A stretch of DNA of 64,000 nucleotides from a bacterium (lineage in GTDB: Bacteria > Oederibacteriota > PGYV01 > Palsa-1178). The DNA lies in NCBI GenBank assembly GCA_037138355.1, contig JBAXIL010000002.1:3728-67727 (forward strand), read 5' to 3'. The notes beneath the pieces are model-generated. The model worked only from the letters and a program-made list of their open reading frames with translations. It was not told where the DNA came from and did no database searches. Below are positions 2,079-35,575 of this stretch, piece after piece. A program made the position numbers and the translations under genes. The stretch's first letter is position 1. Every line of letters starts with the position of its first letter.

Positions 2079-2182
2079 ATCTTACCTCCATGTTTTTGCC
2101 TTCATTGCTTCATCGTTGAGAAACTTGCATCTCTTAATGACAACCCATACAACTAAGAACTGTAAACTTCAAACTTTAATAT

Positions 2183-3448
2183 CTATTTTTTAAGATCGTC
2201 AGGCGTTCCTATGCGACCTAAAATCGCACTTGCTGCAGCTACTGCTGGACTTGACAAATATACTGACGATTCCGTATGTCCCATTCTGCCTACAAAATTT
2301 CTGTTTGTCGTGGATATTGCTACTTCACCTTTGGCAAGTATTCCCATATGCCCGCCCAAACAAGGTCCACATGTAGGCATAGAAAATACTGCTCCTGATT
2401 TCATAAATATCTCAACTAACCCTTCTTTAATGGCCTGTGTGTAAATATCTCTTGTTCCAGGAAAAATCAAACAACGAACTCTGGAATTCACTTTTTTTCC
2501 TTTTAATATTTTTGCAGTAATTCTTAAATCTTCCATTCTTCCATTTGTACATGAACCTATTACTGACTGATCGATTGACACTTTACCAAGCTTAGATACT
2601 GCCTTCGTATTTTCTGGTAAGCTCGGACATGAAACAATTGGTTCTATTTTCGAACAATCATATTCAATTACTTTTTCATACTTTGCATCCTTATCGCTGG
2701 TATAAACTTTCCATTTATGTTCAGCGCGTGACTTTACATAGTCCATAGTTGTTTTGTCAGGATTCATAAGCCCAACTTTTCCACCAGCTTCTATTGCCAT
2801 GTTTGACATAGTGAGTCTGGCATCCATAGACATCTTATCTATTACTGGTCCTGTAAACTCCATTGCTTTGTATAAAGCACCATCTACTCCAATATCTCCT
2901 ATAGTATAAAGAATAAGATCTTTTGAACTTACCCACTTATTCAGTTTTCCTTTATATACAAACTTAATTGAAGTTGGAACTTTGAACCATGCCTTGCCTG
3001 TCATCATAGCAAAAGCTGCATCAGTAGAACCTACTCCTGTAGCAAATGCACCCAATGCACCATAAGTACAAGTATGTGAATCGGCTCCAATTACTAAATC
3101 TCCTGGGACTACAACTCCTTTTTCAGGAAGTAATGCATGCTCTATACCAACTTCACCTTGATCATAATAGTGTGTTAATTTTTGTTCGTGTGCAAAATCA
3201 CGGAGTATCTTTGCCTGCTCTGCTGATTTAATATCTTTATTTGGTGTAAAATGATCTGGCACAAGAGCCACTTTGGTTTTATCCCAAACTTTTGTCGCTC
3301 CTGATGATTTAAACTCTCTAATAGCAATTGGTGCAGTTATATCATTCGCCAAAACCATATCTACATTGGCTATAATAAGTTCACCAGGTTCAACCTGTTT
3401 TCTTCCACTTTTAGCTGCCAAAATCTTTTCGGCTATATTCATACCCAA
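2183..3448 (-). CDS. leuC: 3-isopropylmalate dehydratase large subunit
   Basis: 421 aa in the aconitase family. Cys-containing cluster-ligand motifs (SCTNGR, MPTCGPC) are present. Operon context. Confidence 0.93.
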
Positions 3449-3472: not shown

Positions 3473-4993
3473 TTATTTCTTTTCCATTGCCTCAAACTTT
3501 CCAATTGCATTTAAGTAAGCCTTCGCACTTGCTTCAATAATGTCTGTCGAAACTCCGCGTGCAGTTATTTCTTTATTTCCTTTTTTAACTCTTATGGTCA
3601 CTTCCCCCTGCGCTTCTTCACCTTTGGTAATCGACTTTATCTGATAATCTACAAGCTTAAGGTCGGCTTTTACAATAGCATTAATTGCTTTGTATGTTGC
3701 ATCCACTGGACCATCACCAGTAGAGGCCTGAGTATATGTCTTTTCTGCTTTGATTATCTCTACAGTTGCAGTTGGTATTATTTTATTTCCAGTAGCTGAA
3801 TAAATTGATTTGAGCTGATAAGTATCCTTACCTTTTCTGCCCTCGCCTTCCATCATAGCTATTAAATCTTCATCAAATACTTCTTTCTTTTTATCAGCAA
3901 TCTGAAGGAATTTCGGATAAATAACGCCCGTCATTTCAGCATCTGTTACTTTAAATCCAAGATCCGCTAATCTATGTGTTATCGCATGTCTTCCAGAACG
4001 ACTGGTTAATATCAACTCATGACCTGGTATGCCTATTGACTTCGGCGTCATAATTCCAAAAGTCGATTCGTCTTTTAATATAGCATCCTGATGTATTCCT
4101 GAAGCATGAGCAAAAGCATTTGCGCCCACGACAGATTTATTTGCCTGCACTGACATACCCGTCAAGCGCGAAACCATTTTTGAAGTTTTATAAATTTCTT
4201 CTGTTTTTATATTTGTATCAAATCCATAAACATCTATTCTGGTTTTCAAGGACATAACTATTTCTTCCAAAGCCGCATTTCCTGCTCTCTCTCCCAAACC
4301 ATTTATAGTACATTCTATCTGCCTCGCCCCATTTTTAACAGCGGCAAGAGAATTAGCTGTTGCCATACCCAAATCATTATGACAATGAACCGCTATCACT
4401 GCTTTGTTTATATTTGGAACAGTATTCTTAAGTCTTTTTATTAAATCCCCAAACTCTTCTGGAGTTGTATAACCAACAGAATCAGGTATATCTACAGTTG
4501 TTGCTCCAGCCTTTATGGTTTCTTCAATAACTCTGCAAAGATAATCGAAACCAGTACGCGTAGCATCCATAGCAGAAAACTCTACATCATCACAAAAAGT
4601 TCTTGCATATTTGACGGCTTCAACTGCACGCCTTAATACTTCTTCGTTTGTAGTTCTTGTAATAAACTTTACATGTTGTGGAGAAGTTCCAATAAAAGTA
4701 TGAATTCTTGGTCTTTTGGCAGGTTTTAATGCAATAACACAAGCATCTATATCTTTTTTAATGGCTCTACACAAAGCAGCTATAATAGGTTTTTTTACAG
4801 CTCTGGAAATTTCCTGAACTGATTCCAAATCACCTGGCGAAGATGCAGGAAAGCCACCTTCTATCATATCTACATTTAAACATTCCAACTGTTTAGCAAT
4901 TTCAAGCTTCTCAGCTTTAGTAAGTGAAGCGCCAGGAACCTGCTCTCCATCTCTCAAAGTAGTGTCAAAAATAAATATCTTTTCATTTTTCAT
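3473..4993 (-). CDS. leuA: 2-isopropylmalate synthase
   Basis: 506 aa with MKNEKIFIFDTTLRDGEQ, an HMGL-like TIM barrel and a C-terminal LeuA dimerisation/regulatory domain. Confidence 0.93.
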   Translation of the reverse strand: MKNEKIFIFDTTLRDGEQVPGASLTKAEKLEIAKQLECLNVDMIEGGFPASSPGDLESVQEISRAVKKPIIAALCRAIKKDIDACVIALKPAKRPRIHTFIGTSPQHVKFITRTTNEEVLRRAVEAVKYARTFCDDVEFSAMDATRTGFDYLCRVIEETIKAGATTVDIPDSVGYTTPEEFGDLIKRLKNTVPNINKAVIAVHCHNDLGMATANSLAAVKNGARQIECTINGLGERAGNAALEEIVMSLKTRIDVYGFDTNIKTEEIYKTSKMVSRLTGMSVQANKSVVGANAFAHASGIHQDAILKDESTFGIMTPKSIGIPGHELILTSRSGRHAITHRLADLGFKVTDAEMTGVIYPKFLQIADKKKEVFDEDLIAMMEGEGRKGKDTYQLKSIYSATGNKIIPTATVEIIKAEKTYTQASTGDGPVDATYKAINAIVKADLKLVDYQIKSITKGEEAQGEVTIRVKKGNKEITARGVSTDIIEASAKAYLNAIGKFEAMEKK

Positions 4994-5085
4994 AAGTCAC
5001 CGCCTTCGATATCACTTCTAATTCCTACATTGTTGTAATGGCTGGACTTTACTAACCAAGTCGAGCCACTACAAAAAGTAGGTCT

Positions 5086-5111
5086 CAGGACCCGGGTTTC
5101 CCCGGATCCTG
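5086..5111 (-). terminator. GC-rich intercistronic hairpin between ilvC and leuA; candidate internal attenuator or RNA-stability element
   Basis: In mRNA sense CAGGAUCCGGG-GAAA-CCCGGGUCCUG: an 11-bp stem with one G·U pair and a GNRA tetraloop. It is followed 9 nt later by CUUUUUG, then the leuA RBS. The U-tract is short and displaced, so it is not a canonical intrinsic terminator. Confidence 0.35.
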
Positions 5112-5129
5112 ATTCCACATATTAATTAC

Positions 5130-6200
5130 TTATTTCTTTTTTCCTTTTTTTGCAACTTTCTTTGCTGTCTTTACTTTTGCTGGAGCTACTTTTACATCTG
5201 CTTCTTTTTTCTCATTTAACCAAGGCATCATCTTGCGTAAAGCTTTGCCTGTTACTTCTATCGGGTGATTTAAATCAGCCCTCAAAAGTGCGTTAAACTT
5301 AGGTTTATTTGCCTGATTTTCAAGTATCCATTCTGTAGCAAATGTTCCATCCTGAATTTCAGTTAAAATCTTTTTCATTTCTTTTTTTGTTTCTGCTGTA
5401 ACGAGTCTTGGTCCGCGTGTTACATCTCCGTATTTTGCTGTATCTGAAACAGAGAAACGCATTCCAGCAATACCATTCTCATACATTAAATCAACAATGA
5501 GCTTGAGCTCATGAAGAACTTCAAAATAAGCCATTTCTGGTTGATAACCTGCTTCTACGAGAGTTTCAAAACCGGCTTTTACAAGTGCGCTTGTTCCGCC
5601 GCAAAGTACTGCCTGCTCTCCAAAAAGATCTGTTTCTGTTTCTTCAACAAATGTTGTTTCGATAATTCCCATTTTACCTGCGCCCATTCCTTTAGCATAT
5701 GCGAGCGCAATATCTTTTGCTTTGCCTGAAGCATCTTGATGAACTGCTATCAATGATGGTACTCCTCTGCCCTGTTCAAACTGTCTACGAACCATATGTC
5801 CTGGACCTTTAGGAGCAATCATTATTACATCCACATCCTTAGGCGGAACTATCTGTCCATAATGAATGTTAAAACCGTGCGCAAAAGCTAATGTCTTTCC
5901 TTTCTTCATGCTATCTTTTACATAATTTTTGTAAATGATTGCCTGAAGTGCATCTGGAACAAGCATCATAACAATATCTGCTTCCTCCGCAACTTCTTTT
6001 GCTGTAAAAACTTTAAATCCTGCTGCGACTGCATTTTCATAGTTCTTAGTACCTTCAAGTTCACTTACAATAACTTCTACTCCTGAATCCCTCAAATTCT
6101 GTGAGTGCGCGTGCCCTTGCGAACCAAAACCGATGATACCAACTTTCTTTCCTTTCAATACTGCCAAATTCGCGTCCTTGTCGTAATAAATCTTAATCAT
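5130..6200 (-). CDS. ilvC: ketol-acid reductoisomerase (class I) with a Lys/Ala-rich C-terminal extension
   Basis: 356 aa with [40 protein letters not shown]. The core ends near ...MMPWL and is followed by [28 protein letters not shown]. Confidence 0.93.
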
Positions 6201-6715
6201 TTACTTTCTCCTTTCAAATCAAGTTTTTTAGTTTTCTTTGCCCGTGTAAGGGCGATTGTTCCTGTTCTAACCATTTCTTTGATACCAAAACTTTCAGCCA
6301 TATCTACAAAACCACTAATTTTTTCGTCGTTTCCTGTTACTTCGATAGTAAATGTTTCATTAGAAACATCTAATACCTTTGCTCTAAAAAGATTAACAAC
6401 TGTCATCAATTCTTCCTTGGTCCTGCCAGCCACATTTATTTTAACAAGTGCAAGTTCTCTTTCTATACATTTTTCCTCTGACATATCCACAACTTTAATA
6501 ACATCTATAAGCTTATTTAATTGCTTAATAATTTGTTCAAGTACTAATTCGTCTCCGCGAGCCACTATGGTCATTCTCGACATGGTCTCATCTTCTGTTT
6601 CCCCAACAGCTAAGCTTATAATATTAAAAGCTCTTCCAGAAAATAATCCCGCAACTCTTGCCAGAACTCCTGGCTGATTTTCTACAGTCACTGCTATTAT
6701 CTTTGTCTGTTCCAT
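6197..6715 (-). CDS. ilvN: acetolactate synthase small (regulatory) subunit
   Basis: 172 aa with [35 protein letters not shown], the ACT-domain signature. AAGGAG RBS. It overlaps the ilvC start by 4 nt. Confidence 0.9.
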
Positions 6716-6764
6716 AAGAATCTCCTTTAAAACAAGTTTTGAGTTTCAAGTTTTAAGTTTCAAG

Positions 6765-6887
6765 ATTTATTTATCTCAAAACTTCAAACTGCTTTTATCT
6801 TCAAACTGCTTTTATCTTAAAACTACTTTTATCTTAAAACTACTTTTATCTTAAAACTGCCTTTATCTTAAAACTGCTTTTAAGCCA
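6765..6887. repeat. 17-bp direct tandem repeat, about 7 copies (plus-strand consensus AAACTGCTTTTATCTTA), filling the ilvB-ilvN intercistronic spacer
   Basis: Unit boundaries were read at 6786, 6803, 6820, 6837, 6854 and 6871, with a degenerate copy at 6769-6785. Variants are TGC/TAC/TGCC. The last unit overlaps the ilvB stop codon at 6880-6882. A second short repeat (GTTTCAAGTTTTAA-like, period about 10) sits at 6733-6765. Confidence 0.9.
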
Positions 6888-8556
6888 AACCACCATCTAT
6901 CATTGAATGCAAGGCGGCACCTGTCGGAACCATAGGCCAAACATTTTCTTCTCTTGATGTAATAAAATCCATTATTACCAAACCCTTATGAGCAAAAGCT
7001 TCTTTCAAGGTTTTTTCAACATCAGCTTTTTTCGTTATTCTAAATCCTTTTGCCCCATACGCTTCTGCAAGTTTTACAAAATCAACACTGTTTTCAATAA
7101 GTGTTGAAGAGTAGCGTTTCTCAAAAAATAATTCCTGCCACTGTCTCACCATACCAAGCCAACCATTATTTAAAATAACTATTTTTACAGGATAATTATA
7201 TTTAACTGCTGTAGCCAGTTCTTGTATATTCATTTGTATGGAACCATCTCCAGCAATATCAATAACCAGCTTGCCAGGATTTCCGGCTTGCGCGCCTATG
7301 GCTGCAGGTAAACCATAACCCATAGTTCCCAATCCACCTGAAGTCAAAAATGTTCTCGGTTTCTTAAACTTCGAAAACTGAGCCGCCCACATTTGATGTT
7401 GTCCCACTTCAGTCGTGATTATCGCTTCACCTTTAGTGAGCTCGGCTATTTTTTCTATAACAAACTGTGGTTTTATTTCAGTATCAGAATCTTTGTAAGT
7501 TAGCGGAAACTCTTTTGCCCAATCGGTTGTCTGCTTTACCCAAGACTTGTGCTCTAATTTTTTTATCTGAGTAGTCATCTCTTTTAAGATATTCTTTGCA
7601 TCACCCACAACAGGTAAATCTACTCTTATTATTTTAGATATAGAAGTAGGATCTATATCTATGTGCAATATTTTTGCATGTGGAGCAAAATCAGCAACTT
7701 TACCAGTCACCCTGTCATCAAAACGCGCGCCCACCGCTATCAATAAATCAGCTTCCTGAACTGCGTAATTTGCACAACGAGTACCATGCATGCCCAACAT
7801 TCCCATATTTAATTTATGTACAGTAGGAAAAGCATCCATAGCCATTAAAGTTGTAGTAACAGGAATCTCTGTCTTCTCAGCAAATTTTAACAGTTCTTCT
7901 GTGGCGCCAGATAATACAACCCCACCACCTACATACAAGACAGGTCTTTCGGCTTTTTCTACCATATTTACAGCTTTTTTTATCTGAAGTTTATTTCCTT
8001 CGTAAGTCGGCTTATATCCACGCAAATTTGGTTCTGTAGGATATGTTGTAAAATCCATAATTCCCGTCAAAATATCTTTTGGAAGATCAACTAAAACTGG
8101 ACCTGGCTTACCAGTGGACGCTATGTGAAAAGCATTTTTTATTGTCTGAGCCAATTCTTTAATATCCTTCACTATATAATTATGTTTTACTATAGGTCTT
8201 GTTATACCTGTAATATCAGCTTCCTGAAAAGCATCATTTCCAATAAGAGAAGTTGCCACCTGTCCTGTTAAAGCCACCATAGGAATAGAATCCATGTAAG
8301 CAGTCGCTATACCAGTCACCAAATTTGTAGCTCCAGGTCCTGAAGTTGCCAAACATACTCCCACCTTGCCTGTAGAACGCGCATAACCATCAGCCATGTG
8401 TGCTGCACCTTGCTCATGCCTTACAAGAATTAAATCAATTGCCTTTTCAGAATATAAAGCATCAAAAAGTGGAAGAACAACTCCGCCTGGATATCCAAAT
8501 ATAGTATCCACGCCTTCCTTTTTTAAACACTCAAGTAATATTTGTGAGCCATTCAT
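6880..8556 (-). CDS. ilvB: acetolactate synthase large (catalytic) subunit
   Basis: 558 aa with [35 protein letters not shown]. ThDP-binding motif GDGS...NN and FAD-binding region are present. Confidence 0.93.
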
Positions 8557-8609
8557 ATAATTCTCCTTTAATTTTAATTTAAAATATTTATTCGCAATTA
8601 AAACTGCGA

Positions 8610-10286
8610 CTATTTTTTAAAAATTGCTCCCGTAGAAGCGGATGTTACCATTTGTGAATATCTGTAAAGCACGCCGGACTTTACTTTTGGCTCTGGTTGT
8701 TTCCACTCTGACTTTCTTTTTTTCATTTCTTCGGCAGATACCAATAAATTAATCGACCGTGCCTTTATATCTATTGCTATAGTGTCGCCTTCGCGAACCA
8801 ATCCTATAGGACCACCTTCCATGGCTTCAGGTGATATATGTCCAATAGCTGCGCCTCTTGTGCCGCCTGAAAATCTGCCGTCTGTGATTAATGCCACATC
8901 TTTATCCAAGCCCATACCAGCAATTGCTGCAGTTGGAGCAAGCATTTCTCTCATGCCAGGTCCACCTTTTGGGCCTTCATATATAATAACCACGACATCA
9001 CCGGCCTTGATTTTTTTACCAAGAATTGCTTTTTGCGCATCTTCTTCAGATGTAAAAACCCTTGCCCTAACCTCCCTTTTCATCATCTCAGGCGCAACAG
9101 CTGATTGTTTTACAACAGCGCCCTCGGGAGCAATATTACCAAAAAGTATAGCCAGTCCGCCTTGCTGTGAATATGCGGTTTCCGCAGTTCTTATAATATC
9201 AGTATTATCATTTTCTGCATCTTTAATAATTTGCTTAATTGTTCCAGCAACTGTTTTTACATCAGTGTGTAGCAATTTCTTTTTCGAAAGTTCTTTCATT
9301 AATGCTGGTATGCCACCTGCTTCATTTAAATCAGAAATAAAATATTGTCTTCCGTCTGGAAGTTTTGCTGGTGACAACTTACAAAGATTCGGCGTTCTGG
9401 CTGATATCTCATTTATTGTTTTAAGTTCAAACTTTACTCCTGCTTCATCTGCTATTGCAGGTATATGAAGCACAGTATTTGTCGAGCCACCTAAAGCCAC
9501 ATCAACTGTTATGGCATTTTCAAATGCCTTTGCATTCATTATGTCGCGCGGTTTTAAATCATCTTTTACAAGCTGCATTATCTGCATACCAGCATTTTTT
9601 GCCAATCTTAAACGCTCAGAATAAACTGCAGGTATAGTACCATTTCCAGGCAGTGCCATTCCGAGTGCCTCGGTTATACAGTTCATAGTATTAGCAGTGA
9701 ACATGCCTGCACAAGAACCACAGGTAGGACAGCTTGCATTTTCGATTTTCAATAATGTCTTTTGGTCAAGCTTTCCGTTTGTGTATTCTCCCACAGCTTC
9801 AAAGCCGCCTGATATCAAATCATAATTTTTCCCATGATATTTACCCGCGAGCATTGCGCCGCCACTAATAAAAATAGAAGGCACATTTACTCTCGCTGCT
9901 GCCATGAGCATTCCTGGTACAACTTTATCACAATTAGGGATAAATACTAAACCATCAAAAGGATATGCATTCGCCATAATTTCTACGCCGTCTGCTATAA
10001 GTTCGCGCGATACAAGTGAATATTTCATTCCAGCGTGTCCCATAGCAATGCCATCACACACTCCTATAGAAGGAAATTCCATTGGTGTTCCGCCAGCCAT
10101 TCTGATACCGTCTTTTACTGCCTGTGCTATGGTGTTCAAATGTATATGACCAGGAATAACTTCATTAAATGAATTTACAACTCCAATTATAGGTCTTTTC
10201 AACTCTTCATCAGTATATCCAATAGCTTTAAATAATGCCCTATGCGGCGTTCTTTCTATACCTTTTTTCATTGCGTCTGATCTCAT
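8610..10286 (-). CDS. ilvD: dihydroxy-acid dehydratase
   Basis: The ILVD/EDD family signature begins at [24 protein letters not shown]... The track ORF extends 46 codons further upstream into the leader, which is read-through. The start was set at the ATG at 10284-10286, which has a GGTGA RBS. Cys cluster ligands ([10 protein letters not shown]) are present. Confidence 0.92.
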
Positions 10287-10445
10287 GTTTTCACCTATAC
10301 CTTTTAATTTGATATTACATCTATCTTTGTCAAATGTTTCAAGACCAAATAGACAATAAACAGAAAACTCAAATAAACATAAACAAAATGTTTCTATAAA
10401 GATAAAACACAAAGAGTATAACAAAAATAATACTTCGCTTCAATC

Positions 10446-10475
10446 AAAAAAGCCCTAAACTATGGCTGTTTTTTC
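10446..10475 (-). terminator. rho-independent terminator-like hairpin in the ilvD 5' leader (candidate attenuator terminator)
   Basis: In mRNA sense AAAAAACAGCC-AUAGUUUAG-GGCUUUUUU: a 4-5 bp GC core extended by an A6/U6 stem and a U-tract. It lies about 160 nt upstream of the ilvD ATG and about 200 nt downstream of the leader ORF stop. Confidence 0.5.
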
Positions 10476-10683
10476 TGTTGCGCATTATAAAACCCTATAT
10501 TTTTAAGGCATATTTTCGCTTAAATATTAAGTAAAACTATCGGTCATTTTATCACTAATTTTTGCTATTTTATTACCAATATTAACAAAAACAAATAATT
10601 ATTGATATACCTATCACGGCGCTTGAAACCTTGTATTTGGGGTTTATTTCTTGAATTCCCGGGTTTCTGCGCCGTGTCCAGCT

Positions 10684-10800
10684 TTATGCTAGGACAACGA
10701 CAAGAAGCCCAGTAAGTAAAAGGACTACTACTGGAAGTACAAATGCGGATATAATAATGTTTGTGTATGTTTTTGTAAACTTTCTGTAATTGTTTGCCAT
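10684..10800 (-). CDS. 38-aa branched-chain-rich small ORF; candidate ilv-leu leader peptide (alternatively a small membrane peptide)
   Basis: Not in the ORF track because it is under 60 aa. AAGGAGG lies 7 nt before the ATG. Translation is MANNYRKFTKTYTNIIISAFVLPVVVLLLTGLLVVVLA; 17 of 38 residues are I/V/L, in runs III, VVVLLL and LLVVVL. It sits immediately downstream of a near-consensus promoter and upstream of ilvD. Confidence 0.5.
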   Translation of the reverse strand: MANNYRKFTKTYTNIIISAFVLPVVVLLLTGLLVVVLA

Positions 10801-10824
10801 TTTTATATCCTCCTTTGTGTTAAA

Positions 10825-10853
10825 ACTATAACAAATATAATTACTCATGTCAA
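10825..10853 (-). promoter_or_regulatory. sigma70-type promoter TTGACA-N17-TATAGT for the ilv-leu leader transcript
   Basis: On the minus strand the -35 TTGACA is at 10848-10853 and the -10 TATAGT at 10825-10830, with an exact 17-nt spacer. The leader RBS and ATG begin about 25 nt downstream. Confidence 0.55.
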
Positions 10854-10915
10854 ATAAAATCTTAAATTAATATAAAAAATTTTATATTATGAATAATTAA
10901 ATTAAATTGCGTACT

Positions 10916-12067
10916 TTATTTTGGATACTCTTGTCCTTGCCCTAAAACTGCATGTACCTTCGGCATCCATGAACTTATTTCAATCTGCTGAGGACACTTC
11001 ACTTCACACTCTTTACACTGAGTACACACAAAAGCCCTGTTCTCTGGTTTTACCCAAACCTCATACACATAACGAGATGAACCAGCATCATCAAATATTC
11101 TACCATCGTTATACAATTCAAAGTTTCTCGGTATTGCCACTCCCTGTGGACAAGGCATACAATAATCACAAGCCGTACATGGTATAACTGAACGACTTGC
11201 AAATTCTGCTTTAACCTTTTCTAAAAGATTTAAGTCTTCTGTAGTTAAATGGTTTGCTGTTGACTTGTGAGCCGACTGTAAATTTTCTACCACCTGCTCA
11301 TAATTACTCATGCCACTTAGTATGGTTGATACTTCTGGATGGTCCCATATCCATTGCAAAGCATATTCTGCTGGTGTTCTTTGTATTGTTGTTTTAGAAA
11401 GTATTTTTTTAACATTTTCAGGAGGTCTTGCCAACTTTCCTCCCAATAAAGGTTCCATAATAATTATTGGAATTTTTTTTGCAGCGGCATATTTTAATCC
11501 TGCTGTTCCTGCCTGATTATTAATATCCATATAATTATATTGTATTTGGCAAAACTCCCATTTATCATAACTATCAACAACCCTCAAGAAAGCATCCGCT
11601 TTATCATGAAACGAAAAACCTATATGCCCTATCTTTCCTGCTTTTTTTGCTTCTTCCATTTTTTTAAAAAGGTCAAATTTGCGCATATTAGCCAGACCAC
11701 CATCACCTATACCGTGAAATAAATAATAATCTATATGTTCTACATCTAATTTTTCTAACTGCTCATTTAAAAACTTATCAAAATCTCCTTCTTCTTTTAT
11801 AAGACCTACTGGCAACTTAGTTGCGAGTCTAATCTTTTTTCTGTAACCATCTTTGAGTGCTTTCCCTACAACTACTTCGCTTACTCCATTATGATAAAAA
11901 TATGCTGTATCTATGTAATTTATCCCTTCATCCACTCCATAGCGCATAATTCTAATACTTTCTTTTTCATCCACAGTTTTTCCATCTGGTAAATTAGGCA
12001 AACGCATTGCTCCAAATCCAAGAACAGATATTTTCCAGCCATCGCTTCCAAAAGGTCTATATTGCAT
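10916..12067 (-). CDS. aldo/keto reductase family oxidoreductase with C-terminal 4Fe-4S ferredoxin-type domain
   Basis: 383 aa. An AKR TIM-barrel N-terminal part is followed by two Cys clusters (CTACDYCMPCPQG and CTQCKECEVKCPQ). It is 71 bp downstream of dctM on the same strand. Confidence 0.85.
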   Translation of the reverse strand: MQYRPFGSDGWKISVLGFGAMRLPNLPDGKTVDEKESIRIMRYGVDEGINYIDTAYFYHNGVSEVVVGKALKDGYRKKIRLATKLPVGLIKEEGDFDKFLNEQLEKLDVEHIDYYLFHGIGDGGLANMRKFDLFKKMEEAKKAGKIGHIGFSFHDKADAFLRVVDSYDKWEFCQIQYNYMDINNQAGTAGLKYAAAKKIPIIIMEPLLGGKLARPPENVKKILSKTTIQRTPAEYALQWIWDHPEVSTILSGMSNYEQVVENLQSAHKSTANHLTTEDLNLLEKVKAEFASRSVIPCTACDYCMPCPQGVAIPRNFELYNDGRIFDDAGSSRYVYEVWVKPENRAFVCTQCKECEVKCPQQIEISSWMPKVHAVLGQGQEYPK

Positions 12068-15859: not shown

Positions 15860-16622
15860 ATTTGTCAACTCCTTCAGGCAGTTTTTCCTTCCATATGCCT
15901 GTTGTCTCATCAAATATTTTATAACCTGCAAGATCAGCCCTGTGTCCAGATGTCTCTGCAATAGTATATCCTAAGCCTTTAGCATACCAATATTTTTCTG
16001 AATGAACTCCCTTGCCATCGCCTTCATCTACATTTGCTACTATGTTATATGCCTCAAAATCACCTGCTTCAGTCTTAATTGTTTCTTTGCTTACTACTTC
16101 AAAATCTGTTTTCAAATCCCTCCCCACTTTAATAAAGCCCAAGAGAGTTGCCTCTCCCCTGCCCACATAAGTCCACTTATTACCTACAACAAGCGGGAAC
16201 TTCATAAATGTCATTTCAGGAGTTAAAGTAACTTCTATAGACATATCAAAAAACGGAAAAGGATATTTGATTATTTTCATGGCAATGCCATTTTCTTTAT
16301 CTATGTTAATTAAATATCTAATATCCACTTGCGGCGCATAAAAATAATGATAATCCTTTCCATCTCTTTGTTCTATTGCTTTTGTTTCAGCTTTAACATA
16401 AAGAAGCTTCTCTGGATTTTTTTTTCTACGACCTTTTAAGTAAAGTATATTTCCCACATGACCGGGATAATACATATAAGAATCATCCACTACTACGGTA
16501 GCTTCTATTTTTGGATTAGTAACATTTTTTGCTTTTGCTGACGAAGCAGTCGCAGTATAAGCAGCAAAAGGAACAATCAACATAAGCGAAATTAAAAATA
16601 TTTTATTCATATCTTCCTCCAT
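15852..16622 (-). CDS. secreted DUF3108-like protein (hypothetical)
   Basis: 256 aa with signal peptide MNKIFLISLMLIVPFAAYTATASSA. The C-terminal motif KTEAGDFEAYNIVANV...KYWYAKGLG resembles TTDAGEFDCIVVQPFL...IWIWLTN in the LysM-DUF3108 protein at 25323-26375. Confidence 0.6.
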   Translation of the reverse strand: MEEDMNKIFLISLMLIVPFAAYTATASSAKAKNVTNPKIEATVVVDDSYMYYPGHVGNILYLKGRRKKNPEKLLYVKAETKAIEQRDGKDYHYFYAPQVDIRYLINIDKENGIAMKIIKYPFPFFDMSIEVTLTPEMTFMKFPLVVGNKWTYVGRGEATLLGFIKVGRDLKTDFEVVSKETIKTEAGDFEAYNIVANVDEGDGKGVHSEKYWYAKGLGYTIAETSGHRADLAGYKIFDETTGIWKEKLPEGVDKYE

Positions 16623-16727
16623 AAAGTAGTATCAATTTTTAACAGAATATCACATAGCCCATACAGTGTCAATTGCACTTCTATAGGTTACGAGCCATTT
16701 ATTTACTTGTTGTTTACAACCTTTTTC

Positions 16728-17522
16728 TTAAAAACAGATTCCCACAGTTGCCCCAATCATTACAGAAAGAGTTGATGTGGGATTGTTTTTATTATCTTCA
16801 CTTTTTGATGGTGTAGTAATATTGTCTTTTTTTAGTCTTGTCCTACCTGCATATAAATCAAATTCTATTGATGCCATAAGAATAGAATCAGTAATCCAAG
16901 TAACTCCACCAGTTAAATATCCTCCAGTAAATTCTTTTGTAAATTTAACATTATCGTCTATACCAGTATCAGCGTTACTGACCTTGTCACTATAGTACAA
17001 ATCCATCATTGTAAAACCAACTCCATAGAACGGTGCCCAATCATCATCTGCTGCTGAATAATTTCCAGAAATAGCCCAAGATGAATTTTTTTCATGATTT
17101 TTATTAGCCAAAAGCCAAGATATAGTTGAGTATTCTGCAGCGACTCTCCAATTCTCATTAATAAAATAACCTAACTTTGTACCCATTGAACTCGGAGTAG
17201 ACAAAGTCTGTTCTATCGTAAAATGTTTTTTCATTCTGGCTTCAGACTTCTTCTGAATTGCTTTTGATGCCTCTTCAACAGTAGGTTCTGGTTCATCTGG
17301 ACTCTCATACAAATCCATTTCTGAAGCATTTGGCAATGCGCCTTCCATTTCAGGAGTAGCTTTTGGCACTGCAGTTGTAGTTAATGCCGCACCAACTATT
17401 TCAACTGTGCTCGGAACTGCAATCGGAGTAATTGAAAGATTGGTAGCTGTATCAACTGCCATAACTAAGCTTGACAAGAAAAATATTGATAAAAAAGAAA
17501 CTAACAAAAATATATTTCTCAC
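16728..17522 (-). CDS. small outer-membrane beta-barrel protein with Pro/Glu-rich N-terminal linker
   Basis: The start was reassigned to a GTG with GGAGG 6 nt upstream. It has a signal peptide (VRNIFLLVSFLSIFFLSSLVMA), a low-complexity segment (TPEMEGALPNASEMDLYESPDEPEPTVEE), then amphipathic beta-strand-like repeats ending in a C-terminal Phe (TVGICF). Confidence 0.65.
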   Translation of the reverse strand: MRNIFLLVSFLSIFFLSSLVMAVDTATNLSITPIAVPSTVEIVGAALTTTAVPKATPEMEGALPNASEMDLYESPDEPEPTVEEASKAIQKKSEARMKKHFTIEQTLSTPSSMGTKLGYFINENWRVAAEYSTISWLLANKNHEKNSSWAISGNYSAADDDWAPFYGVGFTMMDLYYSDKVSNADTGIDDNVKFTKEFTGGYLTGGVTWITDSILMASIEFDLYAGRTRLKKDNITTPSKSEDNKNNPTSTLSVMIGATVGICF

Positions 17523-17550
17523 ACTAAACCTCCAAAATATTTTTGAATTA

Positions 17551-34234: not shown

Positions 34235-34954
34235 CTATTGCAGATAAGTAATACCAAATACAAAATAATTACTTATAAATGTCCCCATTTCTTTAGCCTG
34301 TGAAATCTTTTCAATTCCTCTTATGGAAAAATCAACACTCAAATTCTGATTGAAGCTTATTTTAACTCCTGCATTAAATGTACTTTTATCATATTCAAGC
34401 ATAACAAGTACGGTATCAGCCACAACAGTTGATACATTCGCAGCAAACCCCCAATCAGAAAGACTTGAATTTCCAACAGCGAGCTGTTTTTTAACGCCTA
34501 ATGTAATATCCGTGTCCCACAACTTTTTTGAAACAGCTGCATATAGCTTATAATCCTCATGATTAATATTCTGAATAATATTTACTGGCAGTTTTTCTAA
34601 TCCTGCTGCCACGCTCACAAAATATTTGTCTTCATTTAAAATTTTTGCTTTTGCATTAAATGATAGTGTTTTTAATATTTCAATAAAAGCCGAAGAAATC
34701 CCAAAATCAATAGAAGTTCCTGCTTCAAAAATATCAAAAACTCCATAATTGAATTTTAGTATGAACTTGTGAAGTCCTATGCTATATCTTCCATTTTCCA
34801 AAATATATGCTGACTGATTATTAATAAAACCACCACAACCATTTATTGAAGGAGCCACTAAAAAATGATCAACATCTACAGTTGACGAAAAAGCTGCAGA
34901 AAAGAAGAATGTAAAAAGCAGAACAAAAATCAATGTTAATTTTCTAAAATTCAC
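34235..34954 (-). CDS. hypothetical secreted protein (GTG start)
   Basis: 239 aa. GAGGAG lies 6 nt upstream of the GTG. It has a signal peptide and is beta-rich. No family recognised. Confidence 0.55.
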   Translation of the reverse strand: MNFRKLTLIFVLLFTFFFSAAFSSTVDVDHFLVAPSINGCGGFINNQSAYILENGRYSIGLHKFILKFNYGVFDIFEAGTSIDFGISSAFIEILKTLSFNAKAKILNEDKYFVSVAAGLEKLPVNIIQNINHEDYKLYAAVSKKLWDTDITLGVKKQLAVGNSSLSDWGFAANVSTVVADTVLVMLEYDKSTFNAGVKISFNQNLSVDFSIRGIEKISQAKEMGTFISNYFVFGITYLQ

Positions 34955-34975
34955 AACATTCTCCTCTATTTATTA

Positions 34976-35052
34976 TGGTCGGGGTGACTGGTCTCGAACC
35001 AGCGACCTCTCGCACCCCAAGCGAGTGCGCTAGCCAACTGCGCTACACCCCG
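34976..35052 (-). tRNA. tRNA-Pro (anticodon GGG), 77 nt with encoded CCA
   Basis: On the minus strand it reads CGGGGTG-TA-GCGC-AGTTGGCTA-GCGC-A-CTCGC-TTGGGGT-GCGAG-AGGTC-GCTGG-TTCGAGA-CCAGT-CACCCCG-A-CCA. The cloverleaf folds, with C1-G72, G37, the T-loop TTCGAGA and GGG at anticodon positions 34-36. Confidence 0.9.
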
Positions 35053-35201
35053 CCTCATTAATTTATTTTCAATTTTAATCGGGCGTGTGTCCATATAAAC
35101 CTATAATACCATTTCCTTAATATTGTTTATAGGGGCTACACCCCGTTACCTTATTATATTTCAATTCAAAACGGCGTGTGTCCGTATCAACCAATAATAC
35201 T
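35042..35201. repeat. tandem imperfect duplication (about 68 bp twice) of the tRNA-Pro 5' end plus upstream region
   Basis: Copy A (35042-35110) and copy B (35135-35201) share about 75-80% identity. Each begins with GCTACACCCCG, which is the first 11 nt of the tRNA in antisense. Both contain GGCGTGTGTCC and a TAAAAT or TATAAT-like -10 element. Confidence 0.7.
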
Positions 35202-35218
35202 ACTTCAAAACAATACTT

Positions 35219-35575
35219 CTAATTTTCCAACATATGCAAAGCTTCTATAATTTCTTTTCTTATATCTTTGAGCTTATCTGTTGTCAATTTTTCTTCTACT
35301 CCAAAAAGTTCCATTTGCTGTCCATCAATTTCTGCTAAAACTTCCTTTAATCTTTTTTGTGCGCCGCTTATCTTAAACTCATCATTATAGAGAAGCTTTT
35401 TAATAATAAAAACCATATCAATATCTGTTTTTGTGTATTTTCTTTGACCAACCCTATTTTTAATAGGATGAAGTTCTTCGAAATTCTGCTCCCAAAATCT
35501 AATTACCGACTCTCTAACTCCAGTTAATTGTGCCACTTCGCGTATTGGATAGTACTTTTTGTCTTTTACATCCAT
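35219..35575 (-). CDS. MerR-family transcriptional regulator
   Basis: 118 aa with the HTH YPIREVAQLTGVRESVIRFWEQ and a coiled-coil C-terminus. It has no metal-binding Cys, so it is a non-metal MerR-type regulator. Confidence 0.8.
   Translation of the reverse strand: MDVKDKKYYPIREVAQLTGVRESVIRFWEQNFEELHPIKNRVGQRKYTKTDIDMVFIIKKLLYNDEFKISGAQKRLKEVLAEIDGQQMELFGVEEKLTTDKLKDIRKEIIEALHMLEN

Follow-up and report, generated by a model that had tools for sequence, protein, structure and literature searches.

A 17-nt tandem array in the ilvB-ilvN spacer of an FCPU426-type bacterium as a probable outgrowth of a heptamer hairpin

The spacer between ilvB and ilvN in the window (the whole stretch of 64,000 nucleotides analysed here) contains a tandem array of 17-nt units, which is probably a young, lineage-specific minisatellite derived from one arm of an older hairpin built from heptamers, similar to the 7-bp STRR hairpins found at the hupS-hupL junction of cyanobacteria (PMC2670836). 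According to this reading, the hairpin would act in the mRNA and the copy number of the units would be nearly neutral, which makes a by-product the simplest view of the array itself. The initial annotation, which had described the repeat, made no mention of the array being one arm of a heptamer hairpin common to relatives.

Genomic setting

The G+C content of the window is about 35%, its GC skew is strongly negative along the whole length, and nearly all of its genes are on the minus strand; ORFs are present at 15962-17550. The gene order on the minus strand is ilvD, ilvB, ilvN, ilvC, leuA, leuC, i.e., a branched-chain amino-acid operon, and this order is kept in all the relatives examined. 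The closest genomes carry the label candidate division FCPU426. The genes and the elements discussed below are as follows.

8610-10424, minus strand: ilvD, far above the NCBIfam cut-off
6880-8556, minus strand: ilvB, acetolactate synthase large subunit (ORF list; NCBIfam TIGR00118, 861.9 bits, above the cut-off)
6880-6882, minus strand: ilvB stop codon TAA
6716-6879, minus strand: ilvB-ilvN intercistronic spacer, 164 nt (ORF coordinates and sequence)
6795-6879, minus strand: five complete 17-nt units, u1-u5 (Tandem Repeats Finder period 17, score 167; unit coordinates)
6771-6794, minus strand: sixth unit, AAGCAGTTTGAAG[TTTTGAG]ATAA (sequence; aligns with the homologous unit in contigs L082 and L083)
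6773-6791, minus strand: 5' arm of the core hairpin, CAGTTTGAAGTTTTGAGAT (fold of the core alone; inverted repeat I3)
6767-6772, minus strand: hairpin loop AAATAA, 6 nt (fold of the core alone)
6733-6766, minus strand: 3' arm, heptamer array ATCTTGAAA CTTAAAA CTTGAAA CTCAAAA CTTG (Tandem Repeats Finder; MFE helices; lag-7 scan)
6713-6728, minus strand: ilvN Shine-Dalgarno AAAGGAG (6722-6728) and ATG (6713-6715) (sequence; accessibility predicted)
6197-6715, minus strand: ilvN, acetolactate synthase small subunit (NCBIfam NF008864, 221.4 bits, above the cut-off)
5130-6200, minus strand: ilvC, far above the NCBIfam cut-off
3473-4993, minus strand: leuA, far above the NCBIfam cut-off
2183-3448, minus strand: leuC, far above the NCBIfam cut-off
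2153-2176, minus strand: four direct heptamers in the leuC-leuD spacer, AAGTTTG AAGTTTA CAGTTCT TAGTTGT, of the (N)AGTTTN family and without an inverted partner

The ilvB-ilvN spacer, which the initial annotation called unusually long, is with 164 nt the longest in the operon. The range of 0-100 nt given there for the other junctions was too narrow: they measure -4, 24, 53, 92, 104 and 136 nt.

Structure of the 17-nt array

Tandem Repeats Finder placed the array at 6782-6882 with a period of 17, 5.9 copies, 94% matches and a score of 167, which is the highest of the whole 64-kb window. Searching the window for the 17-mer with at most 3 mismatches gave 7 matches, 5 of them contiguous and within the array, compared to 1.02 +/- 0.86 in shuffled sequences, where none of the 100 shuffles reached 7. 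Because the operon is on the minus strand, the sense unit is AAGCAGTTTTAAGATAA. It is built as CAG-N4-AAG-N4-AAG, that is, CAGTTTT + AAGATAA + AAG (7+7+3 nt), and it contains the short palindrome TAAAA-GCAG-TTTTA. In the sense direction the starts of u1-u5 are AAGCAG, AGGCAG, AAGTAG, AAGTAG and AAGCAG, each followed by TTT(T/G)AAGATAA; u5 in full is AAGCAGTTTGAAGATAA. The sixth unit equals u5 with one extra heptamer (a 7-nt insertion) and supplies the proximal 5' arm of the hairpin. Units u3 and u4 are identical and u5 matches u6, and such greatest likeness between neighbours is what stepwise duplication or slippage predicts. The whole spacer, read in the sense direction, thus consists of the ilvB TAA, five units, the sixth unit, the loop, the heptamer run, TTTT, AAAGGAG, N6 and ATG.

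The 17-bp repeat reported in the initial annotation is therefore real, with six units instead of the seven counted there; the 'seventh' copy is the degenerate loop and arm of the hairpin. Its end copy was correctly said to overlap the ilvB stop codon, as the first sense unit adjoins and overlaps the TAA. A second repeat had been described before the ilvN ribosome-binding site, and it is indeed found at about 6733-6769, but Tandem Repeats Finder assigned it a period of 7 (4.6 copies) or 14 (2.6 copies) and not 10. The statement that the tract is non-coding also stood: by direct reading there is a stop in each frame of both strands, and no ORF of at least 20 aa lies inside the array.

The array is AT-rich and occurs at a single locus in the 64 kb. 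When the window was searched with the 17-mer, its 11-nt core and the double heptamer, the leuC-leuD spacer was the sole extra site, other matches to the 11-mer being present as well. One exact 18-mer match was found in viral contigs; it falls within coding sequence and is therefore considered a chance match.

The core hairpin

Folding calculations show that the operon mRNA can form a predicted hairpin just upstream of the ilvN Shine-Dalgarno, with its 3' end a few nt before that site. Its arms are tandem heptamers (CAGTTTG AAGTTTT on one side, CTTGAAA CTTAAAA... on the other). In the core, CAGUUUGAAGUUUUGAGAU pairs with AUCUUGAAACUUAAAACU through 17 pairs, including 2 G-U, with 1 mismatch, and the core folded alone has -14.3 kcal/mol. 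The AGUUUUAAGAU segment of each 17-mer is complementary to the 3' heptamers, with the MFE helices AGUUUUAAGAU:AUCUUGAAACU and AGUUUUAAG:CUUGAAACU. As the 3' arm exceeds the proximal 5' arm in heptamers, the upstream 17-mer units can pair with it, and in the full-length MFE structure they are paired with the surplus heptamers of the 3' arm. At an MFE frequency of about 0.003, the ensemble of structures is diffuse. Compared to shuffled sequences, the fold of the spacer gave z values of -2.2 in the window, -3.05 in L014 and -2.35 in L088, and a weaker -1.4 in L015.

Judged from the alignment of two lineages, the window and L082, the hairpin arms are conserved at least as well as the coding DNA next to them, with matches at 18/19 positions of the 5' arm and 28/34 of the 3' arm against 79% identity over the final 600 nt of ilvB. 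Covariation in the core hairpin amounts to one one-sided G-U to A-U change among the few homologues at hand (window, L002, L082, L083), in which no double compensatory change was found.

An intrinsic terminator or attenuator was considered and rejected, as a GC-rich stem followed by a U-tract was not found on the minus strand at 6716-6879. Scanning the operon strand of this spacer gave neither a sigma-70-like promoter nor a terminator-like site. No Rfam family matched at the gathering score anywhere in the window, and at E <= 5 only chance-level matches appeared in 4800-11000 (mir-196, 18.5 bits against a cut-off of 55.4 bits); these Rfam negatives are not absolute, since the search missed the tRNA-Pro found by ARAGORN (34800-35300) even at the gathering threshold.

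Copy number in relatives

Related contigs were collected by looking up the exact IlvN and IlvB proteins, which gave metagenome contigs from several samples. The comparison of this junction across relatives, which the initial annotation had proposed, gave copy numbers of 6, 5, 3 and 2. L001 (ENA) and L005 and L006 (two JGI samples) are 100% identical to the window and carry the identical six-unit array, including the order of the variants. L003 and L004/L011 have five units with 0 mismatches to the window over 3.9 and 3.6 kb, and what this allele lacks is exactly one of the two identical adjacent AAGTAG units. Three units are found in L002 at 92.5% identity (378 mismatches in 5.7 kb), and two in L015, L082 and L083 at about 75% nucleotide identity, where the spacer has 110 nt and the hairpin is as in the window. 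One further contig with an identical IlvN has an ilvB-ilvN gap of 96 nt, which, by length only, is equivalent to 2 units. The number of units therefore drops with distance from the window, from 6 and 5 at 100% to 3 at 92.5% and 2 at about 75%.

In the 6-, 5-, 3- and 2-unit contigs alike, the last two units and both arms can be aligned, and between the window type and the L082/L083 type these parts are homologous together with the Shine-Dalgarno; the two-unit state is therefore taken as ancestral. On this alignment, the lineage of the window appears to have expanded the ancestral two units to 3, 5 and 6. The description of the array as a VNTR in the initial annotation is thus supported between lineages (2, 3 and 6 units at about 75%, 92% and 100% identity), where copy number varies as in a minisatellite, and the evidence for variation within one population, which comes from the five-unit allele, is suggestive only. 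This allele may represent a true fast change in length, or the assembler may have collapsed the only 33-nt self-identical stretch of the array.

A sequencing or assembly artefact, raised in the initial annotation, might also be suspected for the array as a whole: the five-unit allele differs by the loss of one of two identical units alone, and the short-read contigs L007, L008 and L010, which match the window at 100%, break within the array. Against this, three complete and independent contigs (L001, L005, L006) keep the six units in the same variant order, and homologous units are present in relatives. The artefact explanation is extremely improbable and, for the array itself, effectively refuted.

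Some relatives differ altogether at this junction. In L084-L087, whose IlvN is 85-86% identical, the ilvB-ilvN spacers have 33-45 nt and no hairpin; the spacer is 57 nt in L091 and 22 nt in the Goldbacteria locus L096. In L012 (2853-3000) and L059 (2354-2500) the junction has an unrelated GC-rich, REP-like double hairpin (CTCCTCCCCCCTTGAGGGGGAGGA and CCCTCCCC..GGGAGGGG) with a fold z of -3.8; a second copy, as expected of a dispersed REP, was absent from 6.5 kb of L012. With short spacers free of hairpins in some relatives and an unrelated GC-rich hairpin in others, the comparison indicates that the hairpin is dispensable.

Heptamer hairpins along the ilv-leu operon

Other spacers of related operons were found to have the same kind of structure. 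In L098 (6388-17787) and L099 (8057-18314), nearly all the spacers of ilvD-ilvB-ilvN-ilvC-leuA-leuC-leuD-leuB-asd contain heptamer-armed hairpins, with the heptamer differing by junction. We scored periodicity at lag 7 in these two 20-kb loci, taking the operon spacers of at least 40 nt and calling a spacer periodic if z > 2. Periodic hairpins were found in 8/8 ilv-leu-asd spacers of L098 and 6/7 of L099, compared to 0/15 flanking intergenic regions, with asd-purB, which has heptamers at its start, being borderline; as this contrast is one of intercistronic against inter-operon DNA in two 20-kb loci, specificity for ilv-leu does not follow from it. An unbiased 70-nt scan of the two loci located all 7 peaks with z >= 4.5 at ilv-leu junctions, and lag 7 was the top lag in the spacers of relatives. 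In the lag-7 ranking of the 64-kb window, the ilvB-ilvN spacer was the strongest and the leuC-leuD spacer the second.

Inverted heptamer repeats were found in L014, L015 and L012. The heptamers in L014/L098 are ATACGTG/GTAAGTG at ilvD-ilvB, AATTTGA at ilvB-ilvN, GACCCAA at ilvC-leuA and GAGACAA/GAGACTG at leuA-leuC, and heptamer hairpins are also present at leuC-leuD, leuD-leuB and leuB-asd. L012 has a heptamer hairpin with TGTTCTC downstream of leuA, and L088 has one with AATCGAT at ilvB-ilvN. In L094/L099, (N)AGTTTC / GAAACT(N), the heptamer family of the window, occurs at ilvB-ilvN, ilvC-leuA and leuA-leuC. Direct reading of the sequences shows that the hairpins mostly stop 0-10 nt before the next Shine-Dalgarno. 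On average, the sense strand gives the more stable fold, with 3.4 kcal/mol between it and the antisense strand (Wilcoxon p = 0.02, with some items non-independent). This difference fits a structure at the RNA level that uses G-U pairs, but the G-rich coding strand is a confounder that could account for it.

The leuD-leuB spacer of L098 (15394-15578) contains, in addition to the heptamers CCCAAAG/GGGCTTT, three tandem copies of a unit of about 40 nt, ATTGCAGTATAACTTTCGTTCTGGGCTTTGGG. This triple is another higher-order amplification, like the 17-mer array of the window.

It is possible, though rather doubtful, that FCPU426-type bacteria keep heptamer hairpins at essentially every cistron boundary of ilv-leu(-asd), selected for their RNA structure and not for their sequence. 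They would then serve modular, cistron-by-cistron mRNA processing, stability or translational insulation, and through slippage of the units the stem length would vary rapidly and heritably. If this is true, the FCPU426 genomes form a natural comparative data set on the role of STRR-type heptamer hairpins. 

The operon-wide pattern itself, in which the sequence turns over and the architecture stays, gives a handle on distinguishing selected mRNA elements from mutational debris, and it extends STRR-like elements beyond the cyanobacteria.

Comparison with known elements

When compared to the STRR elements of cyanobacteria, the window element shares the tandem 7-nt units in non-coding spacers, the inverted arrays that can be folded into a hairpin, and the position within an operon between two genes that encode the subunits of a single enzyme. 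The differences are that the host belongs to candidate division FCPU426 and not to the cyanobacteria, that the heptamer is junction-specific in the 20-64-kb samples compared with a few genome-wide families, and that one arm has been amplified as a 17-nt higher-order unit. With regard to dispersal, there is one other heptamer site in the 64 kb (leuC-leuD), and L099 reuses (N)AGTTTC at three junctions. Since the host is not cyanobacterial, we call the element STRR-like and not a member of the named cyanobacterial families. For the STRR hairpins, a role in transcript stability or translational coupling has been suggested and is unproven (PMC2670836).

Among long simple repeats of 5-11 nt, most prokaryote genomes have heptanucleotides as the commonest class, and polymerase slippage has been held responsible for them (Mrazek 2007, summarised in PMC4679880). 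For the intergenic TAACTGA repeat of Beggiatoaceae, Cyanobacteria and Bacteroidetes, arrays just before start codons and relatives with shorter, repeat-free spacers are described (PMC4679880). The window element resembles these repeats in being an intergenic array of the 2-6-copy heptamer type, often just upstream of a start codon, in having close relatives with shorter, repeat-free spacers, and in having slippage as its proposed origin. However, TAACTGA differs at three positions from the heptamer AAACTTG of the 3' arm, and TAACTGA-type repeats are mostly direct repeats without an inverted partner, with one heptamer at hundreds of sites, whereas the window element forms hairpins and was seen only at ilv-leu junctions in the sampled DNA.

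The MIRU-VNTR of Mycobacterium tuberculosis (Supply 1997, summarised in PMC3184786) is likewise a copy-variable tandem repeat that is intercistronic within an operon. MIRU units have 40-100 bp (PMC3184786), are GC-rich, occur at about 40-50 loci and have small ORFs overlapping the flanking genes. Membership in the MIRU family was rejected for the 17-nt unit, which has no such ORF and is single-locus in the window. REP/BIME, a GC-rich, dispersed imperfect palindrome of about 35 bp, was rejected as well because the array is AT-rich and not dispersed.

Intercistronic stem-loops set the ratios of subunit transcripts in the cip-cel operon of Clostridium cellulolyticum (PMC4423207), REP elements occur in intercistronic regions (Higgins 1982, Stern 1988, cited in PMC3184786), and the ilv-leu transcript of Bacillus subtilis is endonucleolytically processed (PMC3997798). 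As with the stem-loops of selective RNA processing and stabilisation (SRPS) in cip-cel, the predicted fold places a stem-loop between the cistrons for subunits of one complex, and the mechanism proposed below is of the same kind. Compared with cip-cel SRPS and REP, the stems here are AU-rich, built from repeats, weak per base pair and known from sequence alone. The element is therefore a known kind of spacer hairpin, and what is new is its host phylum, the junction-specific heptamers and the 17-nt amplification of one arm.

Origin, possible function and rival explanations

The older, shared feature would be an imperfect stem with (N)AGTTTN tandem repeats on the 5' arm and their complement on the 3' arm; hairpins of this kind, with heptamers differing by junction, would fill most ilv-leu intercistronic spacers of related FCPU426 genomes. 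In the lineage of the window, a 17-nt block of the 5' arm, comprising two heptamers and 3 nt, would have been duplicated into the array by strand slippage (or by unequal recombination). By analogy with the known stem-loops, the hairpin would have a role at the mRNA level: it could be a barrier or processing landmark in the polycistronic transcript and in this way set how stable the flanking cistrons are relative to each other, or alternatively be an insulator that holds the ilvN ribosome-binding site in a defined context. Extra 17-mer units would add only redundant alternative 5' arms and spacer length, so that the copy number would be about neutral. On its own, the array is of use for marking strains of an uncultured lineage, and it illustrates that an operon spacer can grow by slippage without obvious cost.

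The initial annotation had instead suggested that the copy number modulates translational coupling or mRNA stability. The number of units would then set the ilvB:ilvN ratio through coupling, the stability of the mRNA or how accessible the ribosome-binding site is, and the differences between strains would be adaptive. The array does lie between the genes of one enzyme's two subunits and differs in copy number among close lineages, and each unit can pair with the 3' heptamers and hence create alternative conformers; a precedent is the 5' UTR of Moraxella uspA2, where the number of AGAT repeats alters expression (summarised in PMC4679880). Nevertheless, the predicted accessibility is flat from 0 to 8 units, with an unpaired probability of 0.41-0.45 for the ilvN Shine-Dalgarno and 0.45-0.58 for the AUG. 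Besides, ilvN has a strong Shine-Dalgarno of its own, the ilvB stop is about 100 nt from the ilvN start even with two units, which is too far for coupling, close relatives have repeat-free spacers of 33-57 nt, and the branched-chain amino-acid pathway is not a contingency locus. We thus hold tuning by unit number to be unlikely, and that suggestion is not borne out by the computed results.

An array of binding sites for a protein or sRNA, also put forward in the initial annotation, fares less well still. The three NAG per unit at regular N4 spacing can be read directly from the sequence and recall HutP/TRAP sites, or heptamer sites of the cold-shock/S1 type; (N)AGTTTN heptamers return in the leuC-leuD spacer and several L099 junctions; and MacGregor proposed a post-transcriptional regulator for the TAACTGA heptamers just before start codons (PMC4679880). 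Yet NAG-N4 runs of at least 4 are not enriched in the window (4 observed, 2.2 expected), and the 7-nt NAG register is broken at each unit border. The heptamers are wholly different by junction and genome (ATACGTG, AATTTGA, GACCCAA, GAGACAA, TGTTCTC, AATCGAT), and therefore no single sequence-specific binder fits them. The 17-mer is neither conserved nor dispersed, the array being absent or different in close relatives where TRAP/HutP-type sites would be conserved; it has no Rfam match, and no candidate binding protein was identified, so that a regulator or sRNA reading these units is very unlikely. We give just as little credence to an element acting at the DNA level, such as a series of sites to which a nucleoid protein or transcription factor binds, a promoter internal to the operon, or what is left of a small mobile or palindromic element that entered a permissive site. 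It would account for the short palindrome in every unit and for the inserts differing by lineage at this spacer (AT-rich heptamers, or the GC-rich REP-like double hairpin of L012 and L059), but the scan of the operon strand found no promoter or terminator, terminal inverted repeats and a target duplication are absent, the 17-mer has no other copy in 64 kb, the single viral match is a matter of chance, and the better folding of the sense strand favours RNA.

Other sites in the window

Several further sites were observed in the window. In the 491-nt leader upstream of ilvD, a 38-codon ORF (MANNYRKFTKTYTNIIISAFVLPVVVLLLTGLLVVVLA) is found at 10684-10800 on the minus strand behind a strong Shine-Dalgarno, and Ile, Val or Leu account for 17 of its last 25 residues. 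It is preceded by a promoter-like TTGACA-17-TATAGT (10853-10825, minus strand) and followed by structured RNA (z = -3.0). From its sequence, this ORF resembles a leader-peptide attenuator of the ilv-leu operon, or it could encode a small membrane peptide.

The 136-nt ilvC-leuA spacer (4994-5129, minus strand) has two strong GC-rich hairpins (-58.7 kcal/mol), CAGGATCCGGGGAAACCCGGGTCCTG and TGTAGTGGCTCGACTT...AAGTCCAGCCATTACA, and a strong GC-rich hairpin is found at the same junction in L091 and L096. The predicted hairpins may be an internal terminator, an attenuator or a processing site between the ilv and leu halves.

The 10-nt core of the 17-mer, GCAGTTTTAA, recurs in the ilvD-ilvB spacer (8594-8609, minus strand), within the loop and stem of a small hairpin, TCGCAGTTTTAATTGCGA; this may be due to chance or may be a distant relative of the 17-nt repeat.

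ARAGORN located a tRNA-Pro(GGG) at 34976-35052 on the minus strand. Upstream of it, to 35218, are two similar segments of about 50 nt (GGACACACGCC...loop...GGGGTGTAGC), and at the end of each the 5' end of the tRNA is repeated. These segments may represent a 5' leader hairpin that was duplicated, or the scar left by an integration.
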